Shown: piece after piece, positions 2,104-53,034 of the stretch
Position numbering within the stretch: position 1 is the stretch's first letter
Layout: every line of letters begins with the position of its first letter
Source: Shigella phage 2019SD1
Sequence record: MT360681
DNA: 53,145 nt
Reading direction: 5' to 3' (one strand)
Translations under genes and position numbers: made by a program
Notes under the pieces: model-generated
What the model saw: only the letters and a program-made list of their open reading frames with translations
Databases searched by the model: none
What the model was told of the DNA's origin: nothing

Positions 2104-2118
2104 TTAAAACTAAAGTCG

Positions 2119-6125: not shown

Positions 6126-6569
6126 ATGGTTGATGAATTTTTCACTGACGCAGAAATCACGCAGCAAATCGTGAAATTGGCGCCACCGATGAAGCAGATT
6201 GATCCAGATTTAATGGAGGCATGGATTGATCTTGCAAAGGAATTTGTTTGCAAGAAGCGGTTTAAAGAATCATATCCCAAAGCGGTTGCTCTTTATACGT
6301 TGCACCTTATGACGCTTGACGGAGCGATGAAGCAAGAAGGGAAAGCGGTTGATGAATTTTTCACTGACGCAGAAATCACGCAGCAAATCGTGAAATTGGC
6401 GCCACCGATGAAGCAGATTGATCCAGATTTAATGGAGGCATGGATTGATCTTGCAAAGGAATTTGTTTGCAAGAAGCGGTTTAAAGAATCATATCCCAAA
6501 GCGGTTGCTCTTTATACGTTGCACCTTATGACGCTTGACGGAGCGATGAAGCAAGAAGGGAAAGCGTAG
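6126..6569 (+). CDS. Hypothetical head-tail connector-like protein; exact tandem 219-bp duplication (6129-6347 and 6348-6566)
   Basis: ORF with 73-aa unit repeated twice in frame. Confidence 0.3.
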
Positions 6570-7816: not shown

Positions 7817-8268
7817 AGTTTGACTATGCCGAAGTTGACACAGAATACTTGTCATTGGATCGCAAATGCGTTTCTTATATTGGAATGATTCAGGTTGGCA
7901 TTGTGTTTCCACCGGTTACGGAACTGACAGGCCGCGCGTTCTCGCTAAAGAGATTGCGCAATTCTTTTACGATGGTAAAATGCTGGAGCATGGTTATATA
8001 TATGAGGGTGCAAGAGTTCACAAGCCGCTCAAGAGTGAAAGCGGTTGGCTTCTCCTGCGTTTCTTATATTGGAATGATTCAGGTTGGCATTGTGTTTCCA
8101 CCGGTTACGGAACTGACAGGCCGCGCGTTCTCGCTAAAGAGATTGCGCAATTCTTTTACGATGGTAAAATGCTGGAGCATGGTTATATATATGAGGGTGC
8201 AAGAGTTCACAAGCCGCTCAAGAGTGAAAGCGGTTGGCTTCTCCTGTAAGATTTTATGTTCGAATTGA
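7813..8268 (+). CDS. Hypothetical tail completion / terminator-like protein; tandem ~189-bp duplication (7866-8054, 8055-8243); reading frame ambiguous
   Basis: Two overlapping ORFs in different frames both span the duplicated unit. Confidence 0.2.
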   Translation: MKFDYAEVDTEYLSLDRKCVSYIGMIQVGIVFPPVTELTGRAFSLKRLRNSFTMVKCWSMVIYMRVQEFTSRSRVKAVGFSCVSYIGMIQVGIVFPPVTELTGRAFSLKRLRNSFTMVKCWSMVIYMRVQEFTSRSRVKAVGFSCKILCSN

Positions 8269-9632: not shown

Positions 9633-12286
9633 CGCTTGGGGTTGATGTATCTCAACTCAACAATGCTGTAAAGTCTTTGCAGCAATTCAAAAAGGCAAAC
9701 GACGACGCAAAGGGAAGCGTTGAGAACTTTGTTGATTCAGAGGTTGTTGCAAGGCAAAGAGCTAAACAATTGGCTGAGGAATTGGCGAAGCAGAAACAGG
9801 AATTTAAAGCAATTCAGTCTGCAATAGATCCAACAGCCAGCAAGATGGATAAGTTGCGTCAGGCTGCGACACAGCTTGATGCACTATGGAAAAAGGAATT
9901 GTGCCGGATGATACATTCTTTGAATCCGGATGATACATTCTTTGAATTAGGTTCAATTCTTGAGACACAGCAAAACAAGCTGATCGCAACGAAAAAGGCG
10001 CTAACAGAAGAAGGCCGAGCGGCGATTGAGGAAGCAAAGAATAAAGCGGGGCAGAGGCTGAGGCCAGAAAGTTCATTGCGGCATTACAGGCACAAGCAGA
10101 CGCAGCGGAAAAACAAAATCAGAGCTTGTAGAAATGAGAGCCGCACAACTTGGAGTAGAGCCGCACAACTTGGAGTTAGTGCTGAGGCAGCGCCATTTAT
10201 TGCAAAAATGAAGGAGCAGGAAAAACAAGCCTCAAAACTTGGCGTTTCTATGGGGCAGTACAAGCAAGCAATGGCGCAATTACCAATGCAGATCACTGAC
10301 GTTGTTACTTCTCTTGCTTCAGGAATGCCAGTATGGATGGTCGCAATCCAGCAGGGTGGACAGATCAAGGACTCATTCGGTGGTGTTGCGAATACGTTCA
10401 AAGCACTAATGACATTTGTCACGCCGTTAAGTGTAGGAATGACGGCGCTGACTGGTGCTCTTGGTTATGCTGCATATAATGCATACAAAACAAATGCACA
10501 ACTGAAGGAGATCACAAAACCGTTCAGGGGTAACTGGTCTTTCTGGTCAGAACAATACGCAGGCTTGACGCTTGGGGTTGATGTATCTCAACTCAACAAT
10601 GCTGTAAAGTCTTTGCAGCAATTCAAAAAGGCAAACGACGACGCAAAGGGAAGCGTTGAGAACTTTGTTGATTCAGAGGTTGTTGCAAGGCAAAGAGCTA
10701 AACAATTGGCTGAGGAATTGGCGAAGCAGAAACAGGAATTTAAAGCAATTCAGTCTGCAATAGATCCAACAGCCAGCAAGATGGATAAGTTGCGTCAGGC
10801 TGCGACACAGCTTGATGCACTATGGAAAAAGGAATTGTGCCGGATGATACATTCTTTGAATCTGCAATTTGCGAAGAACACCTATGAGGATATAGGAAAG
10901 ATCGTAAAAGATGCGAATAAGGATATGGCGGAACGAGCAGCACGCATCGACAGAGAAAACCTTTCCTTAAACAGAGTTCGAGCGGCGCAAGAGGCTTTAA
11001 ACAAAGCCATAGAGGATCAGAAGAACGTAGCAAGGACAGCAGACGAAGAGTTGAAAAACGAGCGGCTGAGAACGTTGAGTTCAGGCGAAAAGAGCTTGAA
11101 GAGGCGAAGAAGGCGCAGCAGCAAAGGAGAAAGTTGGCGGAGTTGTAAAAGCACCAACAGAGCAGCTGCAAAAGAAAAGGCCGAGATAGGCGATCAGATT
11201 GTTTTGCAACAGAGAAAGAACAAGCAATACCGGACGGGCTTAAATTCATTCAGCAAACTTCAGATGCCATTGATGCTAAACTTGCGACAGTCTGGAGCTA
11301 CAGATATGCAAATCAAGCGAGAGCTTGAGTTGAAGAAGTTGCGAACTGATTATGTTGCTGGCGGGGTAGTATCGACGATGAAATTTATCAGCAGATGGAA
11401 GCAAAGCGATATGTACGGCAACGTGCAAGATATTGCAAGCGAGGCGCTCAACGGTCTAACCAACCAAATGGCTACATTCCTTGCAACAGGCAAGGCGAAC
11501 TTTAAGAGCTTCGCAACGTCAATCATCCAAATGATTATCCAGATGATCACGAAGATGGTTATCTTTAATGCCATATCTGGTGCGATTGGCGGTGACACTT
11601 GGACGATTGGAAGCCTTCTTAAAATGTTGGATTTGCAACTGGTGGATACACTGGCGACGGCGGGAAGTATGAGCCAGCAGGTGTTGTCCATAAAGGCGAG
11701 TTTGTCAACGAAGGAGGCCACGAAGCGGATCGGAGTTGGAAATCTTTACAAAATGATGCGCGGTTATGCAAATGGCGGCGTTGTTGGTGGCACTTCATAC
11801 ACTGGCGGCGGAATTTCATCAGGAGCAACAAACCTTAATATTGGTGGGATTAGCGTTGATATTAACAACGGAAACGATCCAAAAGGGTTGGAGACTGGCG
11901 TAAAAATGATTTTCACTGATATGATTAAGCGTTCCTGTACGCAGGGTGGGGAAGTTTACGAATTTGTTATGTCTAAGCGGGGTGATAGTGAAACTACGAA
12001 GGAGGCCACGAAGCGGATCGGAGTTGGAAATCTTTACAAAATGATGCGCGGTTATGCAAATGGCGGCGTTGTTGGTGGCACTTCATACACTGGCGGCGGA
12101 ATTTCATCAGGAGCAACAAACCTTAATATTGGTGGGATTAGCGTTGATATTAACAACGGAAACGATCCAAAAGGGTTGGAGACTGGCGTAAAAATGATTT
12201 TCACTGATATGATTAAGCGTTCCTGTACGCAGGGTGGGGAAGTTTACGAATTTGTTATGTCTAAGCGGGGTGATAGTGAAACTTGA
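9608..12286 (+). CDS. Tail tape measure protein; contains displaced duplicate (9612-9925 = 10548-10862), tandem 288-bp C-terminal duplication (11708-11995, 11996-12283) and short tandem repeats near 9900 and 10140
   Basis: 892-aa ORF with hydrophobic segment ..[21 protein letters not shown].. typical of tape measure proteins; position after chaperone genes. Confidence 0.7.
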
Positions 12287-12930
12287 GCAATTCAAATGGT
12301 GCACGCAAACGCAAGGAGGCGGCGGCACTATGACCACATCAAATAACGACAGGAAATCTCATTTGGTAATGGTTACACGCAGGTTGCTTCAGGAGGGTTT
12401 AACACGGTACGCAGGGAGTTTTCCATTGTCTATGTTGGCAAGGATTACAGAGACGTTGTTGACTTCCAAACTTGAGCAATTCAAATGGTGCACGCAAACG
12501 CAAGGAGGCGGCGGCACTATGACCACATCAAATAACGACAGGAAATCTCATTTGGTAATGGTTACACGCAGGTTGCTTCAGGAGGGTTTAACACGGTACG
12601 CAGGGAGTTTTCCATTGTCTATGTTGGCAAGGATTACAGAGACGTTGTTGACTTCCTGAATGGACACAGGCTGAAGCCGTTTTATGGTTTATGCCTGACG
12701 GTCAACCCGGTCTATTCAGGGTAAAATCTGGTAGCGTTGGATTAACTCCAATATCAGCAACCGTTCAGGAAGTGAAAGCAACATTTACTGAGCAATTTAC
12801 ATCAATGCAACCTGACGGTCAACCCGGTCTATTCAGGGTAAAATCTGGTAGCGTTGGATTAACTCCAATATCAGCAACCGTTCAGGAAGTGAAAGCAACA
12901 TTTACTGAGCAATTTACATCAATGCAATAA
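12234..12930 (+). CDS. Minor tail protein (lambda M-like, tentative); two tandem duplications (12282-12470/12471-12659 and 12694-12810/12811-12927)
   Basis: Position between tape measure and L-like gene; split into two ORFs each made of an exactly repeated unit. Confidence 0.3.
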
Positions 12931-22409: not shown

Positions 22410-22934
22410 ATGCATATCATTACTGGTGAGATCCGAAAAGAGCCGCGAGTAAAGCAAATGCCTAACGGCAGCACACTTTATGTGGTTGAACTTTCAGAGC
22501 GATACAAAGATAAAGATGGAAACTGGCAATATACAAACTACAGTTTCTTTTTAATGCGAAAACAGAAGGTCTTAAGGGTTGGTATGATGAGGCGTTCCGG
22601 TTGGCAAGGTTATTTCTGTATCTTGCATATCATTACTGGTGAGATCCGAAAAGAGCCGCGAGTAAAGCAAATGCCTAACGGCAGCACACTTTATGTGGTT
22701 GAACTTTCAGAGCGATACAAAGATAAAGATGGAAACTGGCAATATACAAACTACAGTTTCTTTTTAATGCGAAAACAGAAGGTCTTAAGGGTTGGTATGA
22801 TGAGGCGTTCCGGTTGGCAAGGTTATTTCTGTATCTTGTGACACTCTGCGCATTGAAACGCGAGAACACAACGGAAAGATGTATGACAAAGCAATCAACC
22901 TCCTATGGACTTTGACGACGATATTCCTTTCTGA
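22410..22934 (+). CDS. ssb: Single-stranded DNA-binding protein; exact tandem 213-bp duplication of N-terminal OB-fold segment and frame disruption before the C-terminal tail
   Basis: CAGGAGAATGAATA plus ATG; N-terminal ..TGEIRKEPRVKQMPNGSTLYVVELSERYKDKDGNWQYT.. OB-fold-like; a downstream frame ends ..MDFDDDIPF-stop, the hallmark SSB acidic tail. Confidence 0.55.
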
Positions 22935-23843: not shown

Positions 23844-24003
23844 TGAATTGCAAAATCAACCGTGTCGAGCAATTGGTAAACTTCAAGTTGCCTACTCCTC
23901 AGACTCCGCCTACTGGCTGTTGCGCAACAGCCAGTAGGCGGAGTCTGAGGAGTAGGCAACTTGAAGTTTACCAATTGCTCGACACGGTTGATTTTGCAAT
24001 TCA
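23844..24003. repeat. Perfect 160-bp palindrome (two 80-bp inverted arms, centre at 23923/23924)
   Basis: Right arm is exact reverse complement of left arm. Confidence 0.85.
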
Positions 24004-24870: not shown

Positions 24871-25104
24871 CGACGGTGGGTTTTGACGAGCAATCTCTAT
24901 GCTAGACAGATCTGAAAGGTTCGCATCTTTTCTTAGTAGATTTTCAGCATTAAGGCTTTTAGCAAATTCCTCAGCCTCATTTCGCGCCGTAACAGCGCCG
25001 TTTTTGCAGTTTCAGCGGCGTTATTTGCAGATTGAGCGCCAGTCAGACAAACGGCGTGGTCTGGTACGTATTATACAGAGTATGTTCCTTTTACGCTGAA
25101 ATCT

Positions 25105-25156
25105 GACGCTTGTCCGGTTCTGTAAATTGCGCAATTTACAGAACCGGACAAGCGTC
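25105..25156. repeat. Perfect 52-bp palindrome
   Basis: GACGCTTGTCCGGTTCTGTAAATTGC / GCAATTTACAGAACCGGACAAGCGTC. Confidence 0.8.
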
Positions 25157-25337
25157 AAAACAACGACGCAGGATGGTCGCCAATCGTTTGTGGAGGTAGT
25201 CAGTCGCAATGGGGTTATGCTCTAAAATCAGCTTTCGGAACTATTGCTAATAACCAAGCTTGGCCTGATACAGCTATACACCACTCATTCGCCCCGGTGC
25301 AACAATCTTTTTCATTGATGCACCGTTTCAAGCGGCT

Positions 25338-27494
25338 GTGATTGGTGATAACGCTCATAACAGGATGTTTTATTTTCTCATACCGGGACGTCGGGTTGGT
25401 CCTTTTGATAGTGTTGGTGCTAATACGATTATTTACTCGCCAGACGGATCTTATAGGTTGGTTATCAGAGATGACGGATTACTAGTTTATCAGAAAGGTG
25501 ACGGAACTGAAACCAAGCCATTTGAAATTGCGACTGGTGGGACTGGGGCAACTGATGCAGCAGGTGCTCGCAATAATCTTGGGCTTGGCAGCTATACACC
25601 ACTCATTCGCCCCGGTGCAACAATCTTTTTCATTGATGCACCGTTTCAAGCGGCTGTGATTGGTGATAACGCTCATAACAGGATGTTTTATTTTCTCATA
25701 CCGGGACGTCGGGTTGGTCCTTTTGATAGTGTTGGTGCTAATACGATTATTTACTCGCCAGACGGATCTTATAGGTTGGTTATCAGAGATGACGGATTAC
25801 TAGTTTATCAGAAAGGTGACGGAACTGAAACCAAGCCATTTGAAATTGCGACTGGTGGGACTGGGGCAACTGATGCAGCAGGTGCTCGCAATAATCTTGG
25901 GCTTGGGACTGGGCAAGACGTTCAATTTAAGAGCATTACGGCTACAGACGGCGATATTCTAGTTCCGCAAACTCACGTTGTAGGATGTAAAACTAATACT
26001 GGCGGTAACAAAAATATCTATCTGACGAACTTACCGGAGAATCAACTTCAGGTGGGTGGGACTGGCGCTCAATCTGCAAATAACGCCGCTGAAACTGCAA
26101 AAACGGCGCTGTTACGGCGCGAAATGAGGCTGAGGAATTTGCTAAAAGCCTTAATGCTGAAAATCTACCATGTATTGCTGGGCGACGCTCAAGGTTATAT
26201 CACTGGATACGATACGAAATGGCGAGAGCAATTAACACTCATTCGCCCCGGTGCAACAATCTTTTTCATTGATGCACCGTTTCAAGCGGCTGTGATCAGT
26301 GAAGTTATCAGCGATACACAAATCCGCGCTATCACAACTGGCGGCGCTGAAATTGGGCGGAGCAACTACATTATTTTGCTGCATGACTCAATCACTGTTG
26401 ATGGCCCGGCGCAAGATGTTGCGGAAACTCTGCGTTACTATCAAAGCAAAGAAACTCAGATCGAGGAAGCTATTGAATTTTTCAAAAACTTTGATCTAAA
26501 ACAGTTGCAAGATCTGGCTAATCAGGTTAAAGGTGATGCAGAGAAAACAGCCAATGATCGTGCTGCTACTGAACAACTGAAAAACGACACTCAACATATA
26601 AAGGATTCTGCTGTTGCTGAAACAAACCAGATTAAAGCAGACACTAACGCAATCAAGGCGCAAACACAACAGATTAAAGATTCTGCGATAACGGAAGTTA
26701 ATTCCGCACGCGATCAAGGTGTTTTAGCTGTAAACCAGACTAAAGATCAGGCTGTTTCAGAAATGAATCAGATAAAGGGTGATGTTTCGAATCTGAAAAC
26801 GAAGCTATTTCAGCAAGGGATTCAGCCCAGCAATACATGGCAATGGACGCTCAAGGTTATATCACTGGATACGATACGAAATGGCGAGAGCAATATCAGT
26901 GAAGTTATCAGCGATACACAAATCCGCGCTATCACAACTGGCGGCGCTGAAATTGGGCGGAGCAACTACATTATTTTGCTGCATGACTCAATCACTGTTG
27001 ATGGCCCGGCGCAAGATGTTGCGGAAACTCTGCGTTACTATCAAAGCAAAGAAACTCAGATCGAGGAAGCTATTGAATTTTTCAAAAACTTTGATCTAAA
27101 ACAGTTGCAAGATCTGGCTAATCAGGTTAAAGGTGATGCAGAGAAAACAGCCAATGATCGTGCTGCTACTGAACAACTGAAAAACGACACTCAACATATA
27201 AAGGATTCTGCTGTTGCTGAAACAAACCAGATTAAAGCAGACACTAACGCAATCAAGGCGCAAACACAACAGATTAAAGATTCTGCGATAACGGAAGTTA
27301 ATTCCGCACGCGATCAAGGTGTTTTAGCTGTAAACCAGACTAAAGATCAGGCTGTTTCAGAAATGAATCAGATAAAGGGTGATGTTTCGAATCTGAAAAC
27401 GAAGCTATTTCAGCAAGGGATTCAGCCCAGCAATACACATGCGTTTTCTCCCGTGTTGCATGTTAATGTCAATGCAGATAATAGCATTTGCTAA
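25338..27494 (+). CDS. Long tail fibre protein; 318-bp tandem duplication (25271-25588, 25589-25906), 600-bp tandem duplication (26297-26838 and 26897-27438) and frame disruption near 26100
   Basis: N-terminal ..GGTGATDAAGARNNLGLG.. motif common to phage tail fibres; long coiled-coil-like repeats rich in A/T/N/Q/K. Confidence 0.6.
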   Translation: MIGDNAHNRMFYFLIPGRRVGPFDSVGANTIIYSPDGSYRLVIRDDGLLVYQKGDGTETKPFEIATGGTGATDAAGARNNLGLGSYTPLIRPGATIFFIDAPFQAAVIGDNAHNRMFYFLIPGRRVGPFDSVGANTIIYSPDGSYRLVIRDDGLLVYQKGDGTETKPFEIATGGTGATDAAGARNNLGLGTGQDVQFKSITATDGDILVPQTHVVGCKTNTGGNKNIYLTNLPENQLQVGGTGAQSANNAAETAKTALLRREMRLRNLLKALMLKIYHVLLGDAQGYITGYDTKWREQLTLIRPGATIFFIDAPFQAAVISEVISDTQIRAITTGGAEIGRSNYIILLHDSITVDGPAQDVAETLRYYQSKETQIEEAIEFFKNFDLKQLQDLANQVKGDAEKTANDRAATEQLKNDTQHIKDSAVAETNQIKADTNAIKAQTQQIKDSAITEVNSARDQGVLAVNQTKDQAVSEMNQIKGDVSNLKTKLFQQGIQPSNTWQWTLKVISLDTIRNGESNISEVISDTQIRAITTGGAEIGRSNYIILLHDSITVDGPAQDVAETLRYYQSKETQIEEAIEFFKNFDLKQLQDLANQVKGDAEKTANDRAATEQLKNDTQHIKDSAVAETNQIKADTNAIKAQTQQIKDSAITEVNSARDQGVLAVNQTKDQAVSEMNQIKGDVSNLKTKLFQQGIQPSNTHAFSPVLHVNVNADNSIC

Positions 27495-27495
27495 G

Positions 27496-27516
27496 TCAAA
27501 AAACCCGCAATGCGGG
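27496..27516 (-). terminator. Hairpin with T-run on minus strand
   Basis: CCCGC-AAT-GCGGG preceded by AAAAAA on plus strand. Confidence 0.35.
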
Positions 27517-27535
27517 GCGAAAGTAGCAGTGACAT

Positions 27536-28470
27536 GATCCAACCAACTCCGGTATCATTACCGCACACGTTGCAGATCGCACCGCCATCGCCTTTTTATC
27601 GCCAAGTTTATCCGTCCATCTGAAGCGATCCTTTCCGCCGCAGTGGGGCTTTTCATTGATGAAGAAGGTAAACAGTCTTTTCTAGCAAAGGACTACACGC
27701 GCGGGTCGGTTGTGAGAACAGGAAACACCGATAAGACTATCTATCTTTGCGTTGACTGGATTGATGCGCAACATATTCACCTTGCAACTGGTCAAGAGGT
27801 TTGGGCCTGCTTCGATGCAACTAATATTGAGATTGTAGCTTACAGGTATAAAGGCAACAGAAGAATGCGAGTTGTCTGTAAGAGTACAGACCGTGACGCT
27901 ATCATAGCTGCCGAGGAAAGAGGTCTTGAAATTATGATGCCGATTAATGATAATTACAGGCAAGGGATAGACAGGAAGGTTTACAAACCTGAATCTCTTC
28001 TCAAGCTAACCGGAGAACCTTACAGCGAAGTGATCAATATTTTGGGCCGTTTTCTTGGGAAAGTTCCACAGGACTATAGAATCAAGGCAAATAAGCGAGT
28101 ATCTCGTGATTCTGGTTATTCGTTTGGGAAACAGGCAAGTCATGAATGCTGCGAGCGCGTTATGTCAAAAACATTAAAATTTGATCGCACGCCGTTAAGC
28201 ACATATGAAGGAATATACCCGCCTGAAGATGGTTATTATGAATGCGGCGTAAAAGATGGTCGATACATTCACGCGTTACCATGTTACCGGTGCATTCAGA
28301 TGAAATTGATGATGAAATGTGCAATGTGCTTTTCATTGATGAAGAAGGTAAACAGTCTTTTCCCCCACTGCGGCGGAAAGGATCGCTTCAGATGGACGGA
28401 TAAACTTGGCGATAAAAAGGCGATGGCGGTGCGATCTGCAACGTGTGCGGTAATGATACCGGAGTTGGTT
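27536..28470. repeat. Segment bounded by ~115-bp perfect inverted repeats (27536-27650 and 28354-28470) plus 34-bp direct repeats (27648-27682, 28320-28353)
   Basis: Exact reverse-complement identity of the two outer arms. Confidence 0.8.
27643..28319 (+). CDS. Hypothetical protein encoded inside the inverted-repeat-flanked segment
   Basis: Open frame across the internal segment; GTG start; no recognisable motifs. Confidence 0.25.
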
Positions 28471-28622
28471 GGATCACAAGATTGATGCTTGCCGTTAAAA
28501 ACTTCATTTGGAAGACCGCAAATACTTTGTAGCGCCTCACGCCACAATCCTTGCATATATGGGAGTACATCTTCCTTTTGATAAACCATAAAGTTTTCGT
28601 TATTCATATACACCTCAAACAA
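28354..28622 (-). CDS. Hypothetical protein, N-terminal part only (frame ends inside inverted repeat)
   Basis: Minus-strand start at 28622; protein-like N-terminus MFEVYMNNENFMVYQKEDVLPYMQGLWREALQ.. Confidence 0.25.
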
Positions 28623-28645
28623 AAAGCCTGACAGATGATAACATC

Positions 28646-29158
28646 ATGCCGGGCATTGTTTTTCTTATTGAGTATTACGGCAGCGTGTCAGCAATGTCAA
28701 GCCGTGCTTTTAGTCCAGCGCGAAAGAACAGCGAATCGCGGTATCAACTGGCAAGATTGACAAACGCACAATCAATGGCAATAACGGAACTCGACGGGGT
28801 AAAGATAAGAAAAGCGCAAGCGCCCTACAGGATACTATGTTTTAAAAGAGCAAAGCGTCTTAACGTTAGCCAGCAAACTGTAAATCAGTGGCGTGTTCGC
28901 GGTATGATTTCAGCCGCTGGCGCTCAAAAGGTGCATAACGATTACAAGAAATATGGTTGTCAAGGCTATCGCGCGTCATTCTGCCGTCCAGACCTGCGAT
29001 TTGATTCCAATGGAAAACCGCTCACAAAGAGATGTGATAAGCGTGAAATGTTGCGAGTAGTAAGAATGTCAGATTATGAACCCGGCGGATTCCTGTATAA
29101 ACCTGAAAGCACTAATTGCCATTATTCATTCTCCAATAGCATTTTTGTTAAACAATGA
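28646..29158 (+). CDS. Hypothetical DNA-binding protein (HTH-like)
   Basis: Segment ..RLNVSQQTVNQWRVRGMIS.. resembles a helix-turn-helix. Confidence 0.3.
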   Translation: MPGIVFLIEYYGSVSAMSSRAFSPARKNSESRYQLARLTNAQSMAITELDGVKIRKAQAPYRILCFKRAKRLNVSQQTVNQWRVRGMISAAGAQKVHNDYKKYGCQGYRASFCRPDLRFDSNGKPLTKRCDKREMLRVVRMSDYEPGGFLYKPESTNCHYSFSNSIFVKQ

Positions 29159-29241
29159 TTTAATGATTGTGTATTATACACGCCAAATGGCATTACTCAA
29201 AGGTTTTAGATATTGCGGCAAGGGTATGCAGACATTGCGAC

Positions 29242-30568
29242 ATGATTCCAAACATTGAAAAGCAAATATCAGCACTTGGTGAAGCGGTAATTAAATCCAT
29301 TCAGGAGCGATTCACTGTTGGCGAGGTTGTGCCTTACCCTTACCAGTGCGTTGCATACGCTGAGATCGCAAAGCGTATGAAAAATTATAAGCATCCATTC
29401 TTTGTTAAAGCGTCCGTATCGGCTGGCAAAACATTGATGTTTGCAATGGTTGCTCACCAGTGCCGGAAAATGGGATTAAAACGCAGGACTGAAGACAAAA
29501 GCGCATACTTTCCGATTGTTGTTGGTGCTGAGGGTACTGTAGTTAATGGACTGTTTAAAGCGCTTGGCGACTATGTTCCGCACGTTATCGGGATTGACGA
29601 GTGTCACCGGTGGATTGGGAAGACCTTGCCGACGCAAACAACGAAGAAAGGCGAAAAAGTACCAAATCCAGATTATGACATAACAAAGGGAAGCAGGAAC
29701 AGAAATACAGAGTTCCTGATTGGCGAGGATGGCTTGCCAATGGAGGGAACAGGCCGCACACAATACACTGTCATTATCATGGAAATGATGCGCCGCTGCC
29801 GGAAAGCATATGGTCATGAACTGCGCATCTTTGGTATGACTGGATCGGAGTTTCGCGGCGTAGTCCCGATCCCGGTAGAAGACAAAAGCAGAAAGGATTC
29901 TGGCGTGAACAGGTTACTAATATTGATACCAACTACCCCAACAAATTTTGGCGACGTTGGCGATCTAGGGTATGACCTTTCAGAGTTTGAGGCATCCAGT
30001 GAGGATGGAGTTGCAGACTTTGACGCTAAAACGCTTCGCAGGATGGAACAAAAATTCATGAAGAAGCGACCATGCAGGAGAAAGGCACTGCAAAGAGGCA
30101 GCGGCAGCATTGCCACCGGAACGACTTACAGGATCATTACTGGTAAAACTGGCGACAACCAGCGCAAGGAGTGGCTGAGGGAAGCATACGAAGGGAAGGT
30201 AAAATACATCTTCCGTGTTCAGGCGCTAACAACTGGCGTTAACGTGCCGTTTTGGGATACGTCTGTTATTCTGCGCAAGATTGGATCGCTAACTTTGCTG
30301 ATTCAGCTTTTAGGTCGCGGAATGCGACTACTTAAGAAGTGGCATAAGGAGCAAGGATTCAAGAAAGATGATCACCTCGTCATGGATTTTTCAGGAACGA
30401 TGGACGAGTTAGGGAGCTTTATTTTGATCCGATACTGGAGCAGGCGCAGCACCAGAAGCGATTCAGGAACGGTAAAGATCCGAAGCCGTGCCCTATTTGC
30501 GGAACTCTTAATAGCTATTATGCTCGCCGTTGTATGCACGCACGTAGACGAAAACGACAACAGATGTG
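29242..30568 (+). CDS. SF2 helicase (DEAH-type) with C-terminal zinc ribbon; frame disruption near 30420
   Basis: Walker A-like ASVSAGKT, DECH box (..IGIDECHRW..), motif VI-like ..LIQLLGRGMRL..; alternative frame ends ..KPCPICGTLNSYYARRCMHARRRKRQQM-stop. Confidence 0.6.
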
Positions 30569-30724
30569 AGTGGTTCTTTAAATTCAGGACATGTGATGAT
30601 CAGATTGACCCGCGCACTAAAAGATTATTCAGCGCGGCTGTGGAACTAAAATCATTGATTGACCCAAACGAGAAGTTAAGCGGAAAGCACTATACAAAAA
30701 CGACTGGTTCGGTGCAATCTTTCT

Positions 30725-31206
30725 CTGTTGACATGACGAAAAACCAGAAAGGGATAATATTTAATTATGAGCTTTCCGATGGCATAGACACTTTCAGGGC
30801 GAGAGAGATATTTTCCCTGAATCTGAAAGCCAAATTTGCCGCGCAAAATGGCGAAGCGTTGCTCTTAAGCACATACCAGATCGCCGTGTTGCTGGCATGG
30901 TGGCGAGCTATCGTAATGCAAGAAAAATCATTGATTGACCCAAACGAGAAGTTAAGCGGAAAGCACTATACAAAAACGACTGGTTCGGTGCAATCTTTCT
31001 CTGTTGACATGACGAAAAACCAGAAAGGGATAATATTTAATTATGAGCTTTCCGATGGCATAGACACTTTCAGGGCGAGAGAGATATTTTCCCTGAATCT
31101 GAAAGCCAAATTTGCCGCGCAAAATGGCGAAGCGTTGCTCTTAAGCACATACCAGATCGCCGTGTTGCTGGCATGGTGGCGAGCTATCGTAATGCAAGAA
31201 AAATAA
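30725..31206 (+). CDS. Small hypothetical protein with hydrophobic C-terminus, present as two exact tandem copies (276-bp unit)
   Basis: Repeated peptide MTKNQKGIIFNYELSDGIDTFRAREIFSLNLKAKFAAQNGEALLLSTYQIAVLLAWWRAIVMQEK. Confidence 0.25.
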
Positions 31207-31303
31207 TGCAATATGTGAATCACATCATGCCACCATCGCGTGTGACTCACCGCAAGACTAGCAAGGAGAAGATAATTTGTACAAGAAGGAGTTTAATTAT
31301 GGC

Positions 31304-31808
31304 AATGACTGATAAAGGCGATTATCTGGAGTTTTACGAAAGAGATCCGACGGATACGCTAAAGGAGGAATCACACCAGATCGGGGCGTTTCAATGGTTA
31401 ACTTATGCTCATCCTGAATTTCTTGCCGGCATACGAAAACGAGGGCGACAAGGGATCGCCACCGCAATGATGGATCAGCAAGCAGGACTCGTTAAGGGAG
31501 TAAGTGATTTCATCATCCTGATTGGATTAAAGGCCGTTATCCGTTCGCGGCAAGCAATGACTGATAAAGGCGATTATCTGGAGTTTTACGAAAGAGATCC
31601 GACGGATACGCTAAAGGAGGAATCACACCAGATCGGGGCGTTTCAATGGTTAACTTATGCTCATCCTGAATTTCTTGCCGGCATACGAAAACGAGGGCGA
31701 CAAGGGATCGCCACCGCAATGATGGATCAGCAAGCAGGACTCGTTAAGGGAGTAAGTGATTTCATCATCCTGATTGGATTAAAGGCCGTTATCCGTTCGC
31801 GGCAATAG
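31304..31808 (+). CDS. Hypothetical nuclease-like protein (VRR-NUC-like, tentative); exact tandem 252-bp duplication (31303-31554, 31555-31806)
   Basis: AGGAG RBS plus ATG at 31304; ..GLVKGVSDFIILIG.. loosely resembles VRR-NUC motif. Confidence 0.3.
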
Positions 31809-31900
31809 AGATGAAGCGCGTCAATAAGTCCGGCAAGGGAAAGGCTTCACCAGTCAGCAAGGAAATAACACCAGTTCAACAAGCAGCAGGTAATTAAGAA

Positions 31901-32653
31901 ATGGCGCAATCCTTCGCGCCTGTTTTAACAAAAGTGCTATTTCATCATGTATTCTACAGCGATCATGAATTGCTTATATCCGTATGTTACGGCAGCGAAT
32001 CCGCCAAGCTCACGCACGCGGCGCAAGAAGGCTTTAGTAAAGAAACTGAAGTGACATTTGAACAAATAGAACGAGAAACATTCATTGGCAATGCTCTTGC
32101 TACTGGAGGCCATTACCGTGCCGTTAAACCAAATCAATATTATAAAGTCACTGGCAACCGCTATAACGGCAGCAACACGCCTGACATTGTGCGCGATTTG
32201 TGGTCCACGCCGTCAGAGGTTGTCGAATGGATGGAAAGCGAATACGGTGATTATGACATCGACGCGGCGGCAAGCAAAGAAAACGCTGTATGTGAAAAAT
32301 TCTACAGCAAGGAAACAAATTGCTTAAAGCGTTGGTGGGGTAGTAATAAGCATATCTGGCTGAATCCACCGTACAGCAATATAACGCCTTTCGTTAAGAA
32401 AGCGATTGAGCAAATGGAGCACAATAACCAGATCGACATTCTGTTGCCTTGCGACACATCGACAGGATGGTTTTATGAGGCACAACAGAAAGCAGCGGAA
32501 ATCATCTGGATCACTGGCGAAGTTTACCGGAGGACGGAACAGAATATTCCCGCACAGGACGCCTTGCTTTCACTTCAGCGCTTACAGGTAAACCAGTGCA
32601 GGAAACAACAAAGGAAGCGTTATTTTCATCATGCGCGAACTGAAAGAAGGTGA
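31901..32653 (+). CDS. dam: DNA N6-adenine methyltransferase (phage Dam family); C-terminus probably frame-disrupted
   Basis: ..WSTPSEV..DIDAAAS..HIWLNPPYS.. motifs (NPPY catalytic motif) as in phage Dam-type methyltransferases. Confidence 0.6.
   Translation: MAQSFAPVLTKVLFHHVFYSDHELLISVCYGSESAKLTHAAQEGFSKETEVTFEQIERETFIGNALATGGHYRAVKPNQYYKVTGNRYNGSNTPDIVRDLWSTPSEVVEWMESEYGDYDIDAAASKENAVCEKFYSKETNCLKRWWGSNKHIWLNPPYSNITPFVKKAIEQMEHNNQIDILLPCDTSTGWFYEAQQKAAEIIWITGEVYRRTEQNIPAQDALLSLQRLQVNQCRKQQRKRYFHHARTERR
31921..31942 (-). promoter_or_regulatory. Conserved promoter-like motif copy, leftward orientation, inside start of Dam ORF
   Basis: TGTTTTAACAAAAGTGCTATTT. Confidence 0.3.
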
Positions 32654-32968
32654 GCAGCAGAAAACGCGATACGTTAAGATCAGCGACATTTGCCCGTCTG
32701 TGGCAGAGCGTCGAGCAAGAAAGCGGAGTTAATATCATGCAGAAAGAAAGAAGCGTTTATTTAAATGAAACTGGCGAGTGGTTGCTATTTCGCGCTATGG
32801 TTTGCGAAGCGCTTGATAAAACGATTTCATAAAACCGCTATTAGGTTGCGATCCGTGGGAGTTTACAAGCGCGCTTGACATGAGCTTTGAGGAAACAAGA
32901 AAACTACCGCTTGAAAATGGCATGAGCAGATCGGTAAAGACTTGCAAGAGTTTTACGAATCCGCGTCA

Positions 32969-32990
32969 AAATAGCACTTTTGTTAAAACG
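32969..32990 (+). promoter_or_regulatory. Conserved promoter-like motif copy
   Basis: AAATAGCACTTTTGTTAAAACG followed by hairpin GCCCGG..CGGGC and CATAAT. Confidence 0.5.
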
Positions 32991-33043
32991 CCCGGCCTTG
33001 TGTCGGGCATAATTATTTCATCAAAACGAACAAGAGGAAAACA

Positions 33044-33223
33044 AAATGGTTGTTTACGATCCACGCGCTTTTAAAATTGCCCAAGAAGTTTCACGCGAAT
33101 CTGTTGCTGGCGGTTCTGCTAACGGCTATCAGTTTGATTGGTCGGCAGCAATGACCTTGCTTAAGGTTGCATATGGTCACGCGCCAATTAAAACAGCGGA
33201 GGAATATTATAAGCATGAAGGTT
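33044..33223 (+). CDS. Small hypothetical protein
   Basis: AGAGGAAAACAAA plus ATG, downstream of promoter motif copy at 32969-32990. Confidence 0.3.
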
Positions 33224-33457
33224 GAACAAGGTAGGCAGGCCGTATGGGATCACGCAAAGGAATGTGGGATCTCTGAAGACATAGCCGGGATAGCAAAATA
33301 TTTTGATATTGCTGACATAAGCATTATAAGCGGCGACAAAATGACTTTTCTCAATGAACGACCGCGCAAAATGCATCGCGTCCCAGCAATACCAACAAAG
33401 ATTGATTTCAAAGAGGCTATGGCGAAAATTCGCGAGCCGCGCAAATACTACAAATGA
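33215..33457 (+). CDS. Small hypothetical protein
   Basis: ORF with GGAGGA upstream. Confidence 0.3.
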   Translation: MKVEQGRQAVWDHAKECGISEDIAGIAKYFDIADISIISGDKMTFLNERPRKMHRVPAIPTKIDFKEAMAKIREPRKYYK

Positions 33458-36280: not shown

Positions 36281-36324
36281 TGCTTGAAAATAATCCTAAA
36301 TGAACACTCTTACCTTTATCATAT

Positions 36325-36978
36325 ATGGTTGCATGCCATTTTTTCTTTCTTCCTCCAGCACACCCCTATTCCATTGTCATATATAAATATTTTATTCCAA
36401 TCGATTGGAATAAAATATTTATATATGACAATGGAATATTGTGGGAAATGCACAATGGAAAAATACCAGAAGGAATGGAGATAGATCATATATGGCACAA
36501 TAGGTGGGATAACAGGATTGAAAATTTAAGGCTTGCATCAAGATTAGAGAACAGCAAAAACGTATCTCTACTAAAAAGAAATAAATCTGGTAGGGTTGGG
36601 GTGTGCTGGAGGAAGAAAGAAAGGTGGAGAAACAGAAGGGGAAAAGCAAAGCACGGAAGCGTTGCTGGATGTGTAGATAAAAATGGCTATGTAAGAATAA
36701 GGTATAATGGTGTATTGCTTTTGGCACATAGGATAATATGGGAAATGCACAATGGAAAAATACCAGAAGGAATGGAGATAGATCATATATGGCACAATAG
36801 GTGGGATAACAGGATTGAAAATTTAAGGCTTGCATCAAGATTAGAGAACAGCAAAAACGTATCTCTACTAAAAAGAAATAAATCTGGTAGGGTTGGGGTG
36901 TGCTGGAGGAAGAAAGAAAAAATGGCATGCAACCATATACATATCTTTTCCTTAGAGCTTTTATTTGTTGTCTATTAA
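36325..36978 (+). CDS. HNH homing endonuclease with AP2-like DNA-binding domain; internal ~180-297-bp duplication (36442-36620 approx = 36739-36917)
   Basis: ..NGYVRIRYNGVLLLAHRIIWEMHNGKIPEGMEIDHIWHNRWDNRIENLRLASRLENSKN.. classic HNH motif; ..KSGRVGVCWRKK.. AP2-like. Confidence 0.65.
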   Translation: MVACHFFFLPPAHPYSIVIYKYFIPIDWNKIFIYDNGILWEMHNGKIPEGMEIDHIWHNRWDNRIENLRLASRLENSKNVSLLKRNKSGRVGVCWRKKERWRNRRGKAKHGSVAGCVDKNGYVRIRYNGVLLLAHRIIWEMHNGKIPEGMEIDHIWHNRWDNRIENLRLASRLENSKNVSLLKRNKSGRVGVCWRKKEKMACNHIHIFSLELLFVVY

Positions 36979-36996: not shown

Positions 36997-37500
36997 CTTC
37001 ATCGCTCATTTCTCCGATCCGTAAAACATCCCTAACCCATTCGTTTTGCATACCTTCCGGGCTGTAAAGTTCAAACGAGAAAGGTCGATTTGCGGATCCT
37101 TTCTTACACCAGAACTTTCCATCAACTCCATCTGCTGCATTCAGGAACTGAACTGAGCGAGCAATGTTGCGCGCCAACTTTCCAACAACATCAACATCAT
37201 TGCCAAGAGAAATTACAGGGTAGCGATCATTTCCGTTATTAACATCATTAACCTCACCCCAAAAGCTGGACGATTGACGGTATCCGTTTGCCTGAATGGA
37301 CACGCGCACCGGAGACAATCCTTGTGCATCAGCTAATTCGATAATTTGTTTTGGTGTTAGTTTGTTGGTTTCAAACGAAAAATTCGAGTTGATGGAAAGT
37401 TCTGGTGTAAGAAAGGATCCGCAAATCGACCTTTCTCGTTTGAACTTTACAGCCCGGAAGGTATGCAAAACGAATGGGTTAGGGATGTTTTACGGATCGG
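36997..37500. repeat. Fold-back structure: ~95-bp perfect inverted repeats (36997-37090 and 37405-37500) flanking a ~315-bp segment that codes on the minus strand
   Basis: 37405-37500 is the exact reverse complement of 36997-37090; best reading frame of the enclosed segment is on the minus strand whereas the continuing gene is on the plus strand. Confidence 0.8.
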
Positions 37501-38747
37501 AGAAACTTGGACGCTTCACGGTTGAGTATCACGGAACGGATCAGCCGACCGCTCTTTATGTTGTCACAAGCCAGCCTCCTTCAACTGGTAAATCTGCCGT
37601 TAACAGCCCGGCACTTGCTCCAATGGTTGCAGAAGTAGAAAGAATTAACGATCAGCGAAAGAAGGAAAGAAAAAGATTCAGGCAAAGTTGGCAGGTCTTG
37701 CAAAAGAGACTTGGACGCTTCACGGTTGAGTATCACGGAACGGATCAGCCGACCGCTCTTTATGTTGTCACAAGCCAGCCTCCTTCAACTGGTAAATCTG
37801 CCGTTAACAGCCCGGCACTTGCTCCAATGGTTGCAGAAGTAGAAAGAATTAACGATCAGCGAAAGAAGGAAAGAAAAAGATTCAGGCAAAGTTGGCAGGT
37901 CTTGCAAAAGAGAAGCAAAACATACATTAGCGCCGCCAACGCTTCTGGCTATGCTGGTGATGATGCTGAAATGGGTAAACTAATCGAGATCATCACTCGA
38001 CACGGCAAGGCTAATAAGGGGATCTTGAATGTGCGCGCCATATATGAGGCTGCACGAAAAGTTAAGCCGTTTGTTGGTCAGGCTGGCGTAATGAAGCGTA
38101 TGGAAACGCAACTGCTGCCGATGCTTGAAGAAAGAAATTATATTTGTGTGATTAATGGCGTTGTTTTTGTAAATCCAACATTGCTGGGGAGTGAATCAAA
38201 CATCCAGCTTAAGATCAGCAAATCAGCAATGCGAGTTCTTAACATGGCTCGTCAGGAGATGGAACCGCACCTTGCTGATGGAGGAAAGTATTCGCATACA
38301 ATGCTGCGCGGCGCGCTTGGCAAAATGGATAAGCAGGTGATCAGGATTGCTTCAGTTTTGCACACTATCCGCAACTGGTTTAATCGGCGGATACCCTCAA
38401 AAGTCGAAAGAGATCTGAAAGCATGGGATCACGGTCATGTTTCTATAGCTCGTGCAAACGCTGACAACAATATGAGTTTTAAAGCTCTTGGCTGTATGGC
38501 GGTAATTGCCCGTGATGAAACAATCAATGCCATCATGGATGCAGGATCGCGCGGTATCGGTGTGAGTGAGCGTTATTTGCTTGTGCGTGAGGAATCATTT
38601 TGTGACATCGTTTTCCCTGTGTCCGACACCACGCCGGAAGGACTTGCAAGAATCAACAATCGCCGGGGTAACTTTGCTGTGATTTCAGACGAGGCAACGA
38701 GTATTAACAGCCTTATTGATGATAACTCCTTTTTGATGCGGCAATAA
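37500..38747 (+). CDS. Putative replication protein with P-loop-like motif (primase/helicase-type, tentative); tandem 204-bp duplication (37506-37709, 37710-37913); native N-terminus probably lies in the inverted segment upstream
   Basis: ..VVTSQPPSTGKSAV.. Walker A-like; long ORF in replication region. Confidence 0.3.
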   Translation, partial: EKLGRFTVEYHGTDQPTALYVVTSQPPSTGKSAVNSPALAPMVAEVERINDQRKKERKRFRQSWQVLQKRLGRFTVEYHGTDQPTALYVVTSQPPSTGKSAVNSPALAPMVAEVERINDQRKKERKRFRQSWQVLQKRSKTYISAANASGYAGDDAEMGKLIEIITRHGKANKGILNVRAIYEAARKVKPFVGQAGVMKRMETQLLPMLEERNYICVINGVVFVNPTLLGSESNIQLKISKSAMRVLNMARQEMEPHLADGGKYSHTMLRGALGKMDKQVIRIASVLHTIRNWFNRRIPSKVERDLKAWDHGHVSIARANADNNMSFKALGCMAVIARDETINAIMDAGSRGIGVSERYLLVREESFCDIVFPVSDTTPEGLARINNRRGNFAVISDEATSINSLIDDNSFLMRQ

Positions 38748-39292: not shown

Positions 39293-39314
39293 CTTTTAAC
39301 AAAAGTGCTATTTT
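39293..39314 (-). promoter_or_regulatory. Conserved promoter-like motif copy
   Basis: Minus-strand reading AAATAGCACTTTTGTTAAAAG then stem CGGTG..CACCG enclosing CATAAT, RBS and ATG. Confidence 0.55.
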
Positions 39315-39978: not shown

Positions 39979-40000
39979 TTTTAACAAAAGTGCTATTTTG
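39979..40000 (-). promoter_or_regulatory. Conserved promoter-like motif copy inside 102-bp displaced duplicate (39225-39326 = 39911-40012)
   Basis: Identical to copy at 39293-39314. Confidence 0.4.
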
Positions 40001-42136: not shown

Positions 42137-42157
42137 GTTTTAACAAAAGTGCTATTT
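42137..42157 (-). promoter_or_regulatory. Conserved promoter-like motif copy
   Basis: Minus-strand reading AAATAGCACTTTTGTTAAAAC then imperfect stem enclosing TACATT, RBS AGGAGA, ATG. Confidence 0.55.
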
Positions 42158-43223: not shown

Positions 43224-43244
43224 AAATAGCACTTTTGTTAAAAC
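43224..43244 (+). promoter_or_regulatory. Conserved promoter-like motif copy
   Basis: AAATAGCACTTTTGTTAAAAC followed by CATAAT and hairpin, then RBS and ATG at 43323. Confidence 0.55.
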
Positions 43245-43631: not shown

Positions 43632-44774
43632 TTGTGGTGCTTAAGCGTGGATAACATCAAGTATCCGATCACGTTCCACACGGTTGGTAACTCAACTATT
43701 CGATTCACATCTCGCGACAATGGCGTTTATAGCGACGGTCAGAAATCAGAGTTGAAAGTTGATTTCTTTGTCAATGGTCACAACAAATTCAATCCGCACA
43801 ACGAAAAAGATAAGGTGTACTACGTGGAAGATATTACAAAACACTTGTTTGGCGAAACTCCATTCGGCGGCGGGAAGACGTCAATTCAACAAATCATTGA
43901 CGATCAGATCCGCAAGGCAGCCGTTGAAATGAAAGCGCCCGGAGGCTGGCGTATTGATAAGGGCGCCTTTACCATTCAAGAAATCGTAACGCAGGGCGCG
44001 ATTGAAGACATGCCGCTTGGCGCTTCAATCATCGGCATCAAAGACGACAACGGCGACTGGCAGGATGTTTCATTCCTGTTAAGCAGATCGAAGTACACGA
44101 CGACCTGTTTTGCCTCCCGGCGCATCATGGCAGCTACAAGGGCAAAGCCTTTGCCGCAGAGCTTGACATCAAGCGCGGAACGATTGTTAAGTGGAAGGCA
44201 AAAGTGTAAAGATAACATCAAGTATCCGATCACGTTCCACACGGTTGGTAACTCAACTATTCGATTCACATCTCGCGACAATGGCGTTTATAGCGACGGT
44301 CAGAAATCAGAGTTGAAAGTTGATTTCTTTGTCAATGGTCACAACAAATTCAATCCGCACAACGAAAAAGATAAGGTGTACTACGTGGAAGATATTACAA
44401 AACACTTGTTTGGCGAAACTCCATTCGGCGGCGGGAAGACGTCAATTCAACAAATCATTGACGATCAGATCCGCAAGGCAGCCGTTGAAATGAAAGCGCC
44501 CGGAGGCTGGCGTATTGATAAGGGCGCCTTTACCATTCAAGAAATCGTAACGCAGGGCGCGATTGAAGACATGCCGCTTGGCGCTTCAATCATCGGCATC
44601 AAAGACGACAACGGCGACTGGCAGGATGTTTCATTCCTGTTAAGCAGATCGAAGTACACGACGACCTGTTTTGCCTCCCGGCGCATCATGGCAGCTACAA
44701 GGGCAAAGCCTTTGCCGCAGAGCTTGACATCAAGCGCGGAACGATTGTTAAGTGGAAGGCAAAAGTGTAAATAG
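43632..44774 (+). CDS. Hypothetical early protein; exact tandem ~561-bp duplication (43650-44210, 44211-44771); C-terminus frame-disrupted
   Basis: 380-aa ORF consisting of two identical 187-aa units. Confidence 0.35.
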   Translation: MWCLSVDNIKYPITFHTVGNSTIRFTSRDNGVYSDGQKSELKVDFFVNGHNKFNPHNEKDKVYYVEDITKHLFGETPFGGGKTSIQQIIDDQIRKAAVEMKAPGGWRIDKGAFTIQEIVTQGAIEDMPLGASIIGIKDDNGDWQDVSFLLSRSKYTTTCFASRRIMAATRAKPLPQSLTSSAERLLSGRQKCKDNIKYPITFHTVGNSTIRFTSRDNGVYSDGQKSELKVDFFVNGHNKFNPHNEKDKVYYVEDITKHLFGETPFGGGKTSIQQIIDDQIRKAAVEMKAPGGWRIDKGAFTIQEIVTQGAIEDMPLGASIIGIKDDNGDWQDVSFLLSRSKYTTTCFASRRIMAATRAKPLPQSLTSSAERLLSGRQKCK

Positions 44775-51257: not shown

Positions 51258-51520
51258 ATGATCAAGATCAATCCCGTTCAGCGAGATAAAGATAAGGTTA
51301 CGCGAGCAATGGACGCAGCGCCAGTAATGCGCGCCGGACGCGTGGCACTTCCAGAATATCATCCTATGCTGGCTGAGATACTCGCTGAAGTTGCGGCGTT
51401 CACATTCGATGATTCGCATCCTCATGATGATATTGTTGATAACATCATTGATGCTGTTAACATTGAAATGAACATGGCAGATGATCCGGTAGGAAGAATG
51501 AAAAATTGGCAGGTTTGCGG
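51258..51520 (+). repeat. Displaced copy of the large-terminase C-terminal coding segment (more complete than the copy at 52796-52980), fused to a promoter-motif copy
   Basis: 51258-51520 matches 52796-52980 except that the downstream copy lacks ~75 bp; occupies the position where the terminase N-terminus would be expected. Confidence 0.75.
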
Positions 51521-51523
51521 AAC

Positions 51524-51545
51524 AAATAGCACGAATCGACAAACC
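51524..51545 (+). promoter_or_regulatory. Conserved promoter-like motif copy (variant) upstream of large terminase reading frame
   Basis: AAATAGCACGAATCGACAAACC. Confidence 0.3.
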
Positions 51546-51589
51546 AATATAGGAAGACTTAACAGCGGCGCAAAACGCGCCGTTAAGGA

Positions 51590-52982
51590 AATGAGCGAAT
51601 ATTCATTCGAAAAGATGATCCGCATTTGGTTTCAACTTCTCGGGGCAAAGGTTCTTAGGAAACTGGCATTTCAGTTACCTATGCAGCGAAGTGCAGGAGC
51701 TATGGCCGGAAAGCTGGCAAAGGCGAGCGCAAAGGACTTGATTGTAACCGATGTCGGCAAGGTTAAATTGCAAGTTAACTCGCGTTCTATCGGTGGTCAG
51801 GTTACTGGTCTGCGTGGCGGCTACATGGATGATGGATTTACTGGTATGCTGGTTCTTGATGATCCAGACAAGCCGGATGACATGCTTTCTAAGGTGAAGC
51901 GCGAAGCCGGACACATGCGCCTAAAGAACACGGTGCGATCACGTCGAATGAAGGACACAACGCCAATCGTAATGGTCCAGCAACGGCTACACGTCAATGA
52001 TTCAACATGGTTCATGACAAACGGCGGCATGGGCGGCATCCAGTTTAAGGTGGTCAGTATTCCGGCGCTCGTTACTAAGGAATATCGCGAAACGCTTCCT
52101 GATTGGTTAAAGCCTGAGTTTGATCGCGATGTTTTATCCAGTAAGCCAGTAATGATTGATGGTGTTGCTCATTATTCATTCTGGCCTGCTAAGAAAGCGC
52201 GGAGGAATTACTTGCACTTCGAAATGCTGATCCGTACACGTTCGCCAGTCAGTATCAGCAACAGCCTGTTGCGCTTGGCGGTAACGTGTTTAAAACGGAG
52301 TGGTTTCAGTATTACGGCAGCAGCGAGAAATGCACGCTACCAAAACCGGATCGCTTTGAGTATACATTTATCACGGTTGATACCGCGCAGAAAACGGGTG
52401 AGCTTAACGACTACTCCGTATAAAGATCGCGTTTACTTCATTGATGGTGTTCGCGGAAAATGGGAAGCACCAGACCTTGAAACTAATTTTGTTGCGTTCG
52501 TTAATCAGTGCTGGAAGCGTAATAAAGAATGCGGAACGTTGCGAAGGATTCATGTTGAAGATAAGTCATCTGGCACTGGCTTGATTCAGAGCGCAGCGAA
52601 AAAATTATATAAAGATCGCGTTTACTTCATTGATGGTGTTCGCGGAAAATGGGAAGCACCAGACGAAACTAATTTTGTTGCGTTCGTTAATCAGTGCTGG
52701 AAGCGTAATAAAGAATGCGGAACGTTGCGAAGGATTCATGTTGAAGATAAGTCATCTGGCACTGGCTTGATTCAGAGCGCAGCGAAAAATTATGATCAAG
52801 ATCAATCCCGTTCAGCGAGACTGGCTGAGATACTCGCTGAAGTTGCGGCGTTCACATTCGATGATTCGCATCCTCATGATGATATTGTTGATAACATCAT
52901 TGATGCTGTTAACATTGAAATGAACATGGCAGATGATCCGGTAGGAAGAATGAAAAAATTGGCAGGTTTGCGGAACAAATAA
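51590..52982 (+). CDS. Terminase large subunit (N-terminal region uncertain; internal frame change near 52195; 180-bp tandem duplication 52425-52610 approx)
   Basis: ..ADPYTFASQYQQQPVALGGNVFKTEWFQYYG.. and C-terminal ..FTFDDSHPHDDIVDNIIDAVN.. typical of terminase nuclease domain; Walker A-like ..SRGKGS.. only visible in a shifted frame near 51600. Confidence 0.55.
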
Positions 52983-52985
52983 TCA

Positions 52986-53012
52986 AAGGCTGGTAAATCC
53001 AGCCTTTTTATT
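52986..53012 (+). terminator. Rho-independent terminator after large terminase
   Basis: AGGCTGG-TAAAT-CCAGCCT followed by TTTTATT. Confidence 0.6.
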
Positions 53013-53034
53013 GAGGAAAGATATACCAGAGGAA

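Follow-up and report, generated by a model that had tools for sequence, protein, structure and literature searches.

An apparent invertible segment beside a tail fibre reading frame in Shigella phage 2019SD1 is very probably a mis-built copy of the DNA primase gene

Background

Does the record of Shigella phage 2019SD1 (sequence record MT360681) carry an invertible host-range switch of the kind found in phages Mu and P1? The window analysed here, a stretch of 53,145 nt, represents nearly all of the genome of a T1-like phage (genus Hanrivervirus), with 90-97% identity to Shigella phages pSf-1 and SFP17, Escherichia phages vojen and egaa, and others. Near its middle, perfect inverted repeats enclose a coding segment that adjoins an open reading frame (ORF) homologous to tail fibre genes. 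This is the layout of the Mu G/Gin and P1 C/Cin systems. In Mu, the G segment is bounded by repeats of 34 bp with a crossover core of two bases, the gin gene adjoins it, and the alternative tail fibre genes S/U and S'/U' lie inside (PMC4406740). An earlier, sequence-only reading of the window had described this locus and had judged an inversion artefact more likely than such a switch.

Repeats and the gene to which they belong

A repeat search, confirmed by BLAST of the window against itself, identified an inverted repeat at 27535-27648 and 28363-28476, with arms of 114 nt that are 100% complementary and 714 nt apart. The same searches identified a 100% identical direct repeat of 35 nt at 27648-27682 and 28328-28362. 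The true common unit of the direct repeat is 34 nt. The 35th base, G at positions 27648 and 28328, is a chance extension, and the G at 27648 is counted twice, as it is also the last base of the left inverted arm. A perfect inverted repeat of 114 nt cannot be due to chance. The earlier reading was correct in reporting a perfect inverted repeat (given as about 115 bp) and placed its left arm within 1-2 nt, but its right arm was off by 6-9 nt. Likewise, its 34-bp direct-repeat unit stands, but the right copy, given as 28320-28353, was off by 8-9 nt. The open frame that it saw on the plus strand of the interior corresponds to ORF 27643-28485 (280 aa).

Comparison with pSf-1 and SFP17 reveals that the repeat region consists of pieces of one gene, that of a DNA primase homologous to gp1 of pSf-1. 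The pSf-1 gp1 protein is 310 aa long, contains the Pfam domain Zn_Ribbon_Prim at aa 39-79 (E = 1.7e-12) and matches PHROG 510, 'DNA primase' (E = 1.9e-107). The pieces, designated here as blocks N, Z, M and C of the gene and T for the intergenic region, are as follows:

27438-27534, minus strand, native orientation: block T, primase-to-tail-fibre intergenic region; matches pSf-1 1206-1307, plus strand (93%), and SFP17 L001 4561-4461
27521-27504 (stem, then a T-run), minus strand: primase terminator, inside block T
27535-27648, minus strand, native orientation: native copy of block Z, the left inverted arm; pSf-1 1992-2108, plus strand, 98.3%
27649-28002, plus strand, flipped: block C, primase aa ~193-310; pSf-1 1665-1311 reversed, 96.6%
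28003-28362, plus strand, flipped: block M, primase aa 84-~203; pSf-1 1991-1631 reversed, 97.2%
28363-28476, plus strand, flipped: second copy of block Z, the right inverted arm; pSf-1 2112-1994 reversed, 97.5%
28477-28607, minus strand, native orientation: block N, primase aa 1-44, with the ATG at 28607; pSf-1 2110-2240, plus strand, 97.9%
28608-28663, minus strand, native orientation: primase upstream region; part of a match of 28477-28663 to pSf-1 2110-2297

The block order in the relatives is N-Z-M-C-T. The minus strand of the window reads N-rcZ-rcM-rcC-Z-T, where rc denotes a flipped block, and the flipped blocks C, M and Z stand in plus-strand coordinate order. This arrangement contains five novel junctions within 1.1 kb: T/Z at 27534|27535, Z/C at 27648|27649, C/M at 28002|28003, M/Z at 28362|28363 and Z/N at 28476|28477. 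The inverted repeat represents the two copies of block Z, one in each orientation, and the direct repeat represents the 34 nt common to the end of block M and the start of block C.

Block Z is the Zn-ribbon part of the primase (aa 45-82, 114 nt), 27535-27648 being the exact reverse complement of 28363-28476. It carries an A6->A5 deletion, visible as T5 at 27593-27597. The flipped copy translates as PHCGGKDRFRWTDKLGDKK, followed by a frameshift. To its right stands CAA, a TTG start codon when read on the other strand. Block C begins with the left copy of the direct repeat (its first 34 nt), translates in frame 1 as LFIDEEGKQSF...KPESLL and ends on the last sense codon, without the stop codon; positions 209-316 of the PHROG 510 profile match aa 4-111 of the plus-strand ORF in this block. 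Block M ends with the right copy of the direct repeat (its last 34 nt). It translates as KLTGEPY...ALPCY and is out of frame thereafter, a 1-nt deletion near 28287-28291 shifting the frame. Only half of the Zn_Ribbon_Prim motif is recognizable in the plus-strand ORF (aa 241-256), with 22.8 bits versus 47.8 bits in pSf-1. Block N translates as MNNENF...NGKHQS.

All four parts of the Hanrivervirus primase (pSf-1 gp1/SFP17_017; PHROG 510) are thus present in the window at 96-98% nucleotide identity, and the upstream region and the terminator are also kept. They differ from the natural gene in that the parts stand in the wrong order and orientation, one of them is duplicated, the stop codon is absent and there are three 1-nt deletions. 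An intact, collinear primase ORF (~310 aa with a complete Zn-ribbon) is absent from the window: the ORF starting from the ATG at 28607 has 103 aa and is nonsense past aa 44. No intact product is possible from these scrambled parts.

These assignments bear out the suggestion that the native gene runs from right to left, from a primase start near 28.6 kb to a terminator near 27.5 kb, but they move its landmarks. The minus-strand start proposed at 28622 does exist as the TTG of a mechanical ORF (28296-28622), but the primase ATG, as judged by homology, is the one at 28607. A minus-oriented terminator also exists, not at 27496-27516 as had been claimed but, in a terminator scan, at 27521-27504, followed by TTTTTT. 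The interior does lie opposite to the native orientation, as had been noticed, although it is composed of three separately flipped blocks (C, M and Z) plus an extra native Z, rather than one inverted segment. A simple inversion of the primase body would yield rcC-rcM-rcZ; the window has rcZ-rcM-rcC and the extra Z.

Comparison with related phages

When the blocks are re-joined as N+Z+M+C+T, they match the whole primase region of pSf-1 at 96%. In 83 of 85 phage records, the re-joined N+Z+M+C sequence finds an unbroken full-length match (100% coverage), with identity up to 97.0% (97.0% to pSf-1 gp1). As for the window's own arrangement, no related phage record covers 80% of it in one place. In a control comparison, SFP17 and pSf-1 are collinear across the region, forming one alignment of 5,100 nt (97.3%), and pSf-1 compared with itself has only six short imperfect repeats and no long perfect ones.

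A 34-mer spanning the Z/C junction was found in only one IMG/VR contig, IMGVR_UViG_2974632794_000001 (53,145 nt), which is the window itself; the piece compared is identical to window 26749-33379. The scramble is therefore already present in that public record. A search for the unscrambled parent, that is, a native Z-M junction with the alleles of the window, gave no hit in IMG/VR or in metagenome contigs. The exact products of two ORFs of the window were looked up as well, and neither has an entry.

Single-nucleotide deletions and block boundaries

Alignment of the window to pSf-1 covers 36.3 kb and shows 138 one-nt deletions in the window versus 14 one-nt insertions. Half of the deletions sit in homopolymers of at least 5 nt, and there is roughly one frameshift per 200 nt. 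Examples of one-nt deletions can be seen at 27593-27597, ~28287-28291, 4738, 5747 and 12956. Errors that are dominated by deletions and fragment genes have been described for MinION assemblies (PMC12007338). The window resembles such long-read assemblies with homopolymer deletions in its 138:14 excess and in the splitting of genes into short overlapping frames. However, such errors alone do not rearrange a sequence, whereas here fragments of ORFs have been moved, flipped, duplicated or dropped.

Three such deletions fall in the primase gene, namely C5->C4 where N meets Z, A6->A5 within Z and CCTTG->CCGG within M. In the re-joined primase, the deletions create three overlapping small frames, and the blocks are exactly the interiors of these ORFs: TTG+Z (114 nt)+TGA, ATG+M (360 nt)+TAG and GTG+C (354 nt)+TAA. 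In the re-joined sequence, each of the six block ends (of Z, M and C) falls directly after a start codon or directly before a stop codon, the probability of which by chance is ~(3/64)^6 = 1e-8. Three of the six boundary codons (TTG before Z, TGA after Z and TAG after M) are in frame only through 1-nt deletions relative to pSf-1 and SFP17. Blocks M and C begin after the second and the fifth candidate start codon of their frames, respectively. The breakpoints thus follow features peculiar to the error-bearing sequence, and the arrangement is absent from the relatives, which are naturally collinear. Because biological breakage could not know frames that were made by errors, an ORF-aware computational step is the best explanation of these breakpoints.

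Rearrangements elsewhere in the window

The primase is not the only gene affected. BLAST against pSf-1 breaks the window into ~110 blocks, of which 25 are reversed; pieces are swapped locally, duplicated or deleted, and the same kind of scrambling affects the genes for helicase, large terminase and tail fibre. In self-comparison, the window contains 7 inverted near-perfect repeat pairs, including palindromes, in agreement with the fold-back duplications that the earlier reading had seen outside the locus, and 38 direct pairs as well. The spacing is divisible by three in 30 of the 38 direct pairs (p = 1e-8), among them all but one of the pairs of at least 100 nt, and every tandem duplication of at least 100 nt. 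Seven of 17 tandem duplications have exactly the structure start codon-U-U-stop codon with U open (p ~1e-11), meaning that the interior of an ORF is doubled and its frame unbroken. Several further inverted repeats have a reverse-complemented stop codon on one side and a reverse-complemented start codon on the other (TCA...CAT or TTA...CAT), a pattern also seen at the primase; 37009-37128, for example, lies between TCA and CAT. The individual features are as follows:

12694-12927, 12279-12656, 31302-31805, 43650-44771, 6129-6566, 7869-8246 and 22413-22838: start-U-U-stop tandem duplications, U = 117-561 nt
37009-37128 / 37386-37505; 36322-36438 and 36895-36939; 24936-25044 / 26060-26168: other inverted repeats and palindromes, all perfect
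23844-24003, 25104-25157 and 36367-36438: perfect palindromes with zero spacer

The tail fibre ORF next to the primase blocks, 25338-27494 (718 aa), is a mosaic of flipped and duplicated pieces, all from the N-terminal half of an SFP17-type tail fibre gene (L001 4559-5768). It includes a 318-nt tandem duplication and a 543-nt repeat spaced 600 nt apart, and its stop codon falls in a reverse-complemented intergenic region. In the relatives, the primase gene lies upstream of the tail fibre gene, both on the same strand. The locus had been described as lying immediately downstream of the tail fibre gene. This is correct insofar as an ORF with tail fibre homology adjoins it, but the adjacency itself is artefactual.

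Three other observations were made in the contig. In the large terminase gene, 51258-53023, the C-terminal end (pSf-1 26870-27164) is set ahead of the N-terminus (25585-25728), and there are also a 204-nt deletion (pSf-1 25729-25932) and a duplicated stretch. An 82-nt direct repeat, 175-256 / 53065-53145 (98.8%, one gap), joins the start region of the contig and its very end, which is consistent with overlapping ends of a circularly permuted assembly. Finally, a conserved 20-nt motif, TTTTAACAAAAGTGCTATTT, is present in 12 copies on both strands (at most 3 mismatches; 0.01 expected by chance), namely at 29134-29153, 31923-31942, 32969-32988, 39294-39313, 39979-39998, 42138-42157, 43224-43243 and 5 more positions. 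In the self-comparison of pSf-1, short inverted repeats are found at positions corresponding to this motif. Probably the motif serves these phages as a natural promoter- or operator-type element and is not tied to the scramble.

Is there an invertible switch?

A genuine host-range or phase switch beside the tail fibre gene, comparable to Mu G or P1 C, would account for the layout of the locus, although the resemblance is superficial. In Mu and P1 the crossover sites are short, whereas the arms here are 114 nt of primase coding sequence, taken from the interior of one ORF. The segment between them encodes primase aa 84-310 and not alternative ends of a tail fibre, and the neighbouring tail fibre ORF, as described above, owes its position to the artefact. 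The absence of a serine invertase near the segment had been pointed out before, and the genome-wide search for a recombinase found none either. A tblastn search of the window for a serine invertase, using an approximate Mu Gin query, produced a best match of 13 aa (E = 4.2). The annotations of pSf-1 and SFP17, to which 94.8% of the window is homologous (the largest unmatched gaps being 430 and 350 nt), contain no invertase or integrase.

In a switch of the Mu or P1 type, each orientation yields a functional product. When the segment between the arms was flipped in silico, the ORF from the primase ATG had 103 or 93 aa, depending on the orientation, with nonsense past residue 44, compared with 310 aa natively; the gene is intact in neither orientation. 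Moreover, the arrangement is missing from 85 related phages. A true invertible switch is effectively excluded, and we see next to no chance that the locus is one. The preference of the sequence-only reading for an artefact over a switch of the Mu G or P1 C type is upheld, with primase blocks that are mis-joined at ORF boundaries and no invertase to move them.

Origin of the arrangement

Very probably, then, the feature is a mis-built copy of the DNA primase gene, made by an ORF-aware computational step, and not a biological element. The underlying sequence is a Hanrivervirus genome with many 1-nt homopolymer deletions, such as unpolished long-read sequencing produces. These deletions split the primase into the overlapping frames TTG-Z-TGA, ATG-M-TAG and GTG-C-TAA. 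We infer that an ORF-aware step then wrote the interior of each minus-strand frame in the sense direction, without its start and stop codons, and that the sense interiors were set one behind another in plus-strand coordinate order. The sequence itself shows how both repeats come about: frames M and C overlap by 34 nt, and this overlap now stands at each outer end of the flipped pair, as the direct repeat, while frame Z is present in a native and a sense copy, which are the two arms of the 114-nt inverted repeat.

Some features do not follow from one simple rule. The native Z beside the terminator and the loss of native C and M call for ad hoc steps, and some rearrangements elsewhere in the window have no flanking start or stop codons. 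These points count against the explanation, as do the starts of M and C behind the second and fifth candidate start codons and the failure to find an unscrambled parent. Several deterministic rules were tried: replacing minus-strand ORFs by their sense interiors, adding a sense copy behind each native one, and flipping pieces in place one by one. The order T, rcZ, C, M, Z, N results from none of them. Three other technical explanations were rejected. Mis-joining in a De Bruijn graph would leave k-1 overlaps, and the microhomology at the junctions is 0-3 nt. A global triplet register, as might arise from 3-mer tokenised generation, fits the five primase junctions, all at coordinates ≡ 1 mod 3, but the others share no single register. 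A raw single long read does not agree with duplicate copies that are 100% identical.

Inverted and tandem duplications may also arise with no ORF-aware software at all, if the assembly took up wet-lab or sequencing chimeras, generated by strand-displacement amplification or as nanopore template-complement fold-back reads. Fold-back artefacts of amplification and of long-read sequencing are known to give inverted duplications and perfect palindromes. The window shares with them perfect palindromes and inverted duplications that are missing from related genomes, and the zero-spacer palindromes at 23844-24003, 25104-25157 and 36367-36438 in particular resemble fold-back products. The long-read error profile of the base sequence and the microhomology of only 0-3 nt at the junctions also point in this direction. 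However, chimeras are blind to reading frames, yet block ends coincide with start and stop codons and the lengths of duplications are divisible by three; junctions that are codon-precise and frame-preserving are not explained by random template switching. In addition, the flipped blocks rise in coordinate order, whereas fold-backs would zig-zag back, and it is implausible that ~100 chimeric junctions would persist in one consensus. We consider this origin unlikely. The breakpoints at start and stop codons argue for ORF-aware software rather than chimeric fold-back reads.

Alternatively, the DNA may physically exist as deposited, as a hyper-rearranged genome that is either non-viable or engineered. 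The duplicate copies are identical, as they would be in a consensus of really duplicated DNA, and the window retains homologues of the exonuclease VIII and Erf-like genes of pSf-1. If the arrangement were real, a RecE-like exonuclease and an Erf-like annealing protein could flip the 714-bp interior through the 114-bp repeats by homologous recombination. Against this stands the scrambling of the primase, helicase, tail fibre and large terminase genes together. Furthermore, the breakpoints hinge on frames made by sequencing-type deletions, the arrangement is absent from every relative compared and, to our knowledge, no biological process cuts at start and stop codons. Physical existence of this DNA is accordingly very unlikely in our view. 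The more specific proposition that the contig is a faithful copy of a genome which derives from a Hanrivervirus and in which an engineered or other process moved pieces at the boundaries of ORFs has an even slimmer chance of being true; if it were, recombination could act on the 114-bp inverted repeat and flip the primase interior.

Conclusions

With an ORF-aware computational artefact as the preferred explanation, the locus holds neither a new invertible element nor a host-range switch. The main significance of the finding concerns data quality: the public record IMGVR_UViG_2974632794_000001 should be flagged as what is very probably a frame-aware scramble of an error-rich Hanrivervirus genome. 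Searches for invertible segments, repeat proteins, domain duplications or new gene orders may be misled by the perfect inverted repeats, palindromes and in-frame duplications of this record, which leave frames open. Such records can be recognized by a reusable signature: breakpoints fall on start and stop codons of ORFs that errors have created, and the lengths of duplications are divisible by three.
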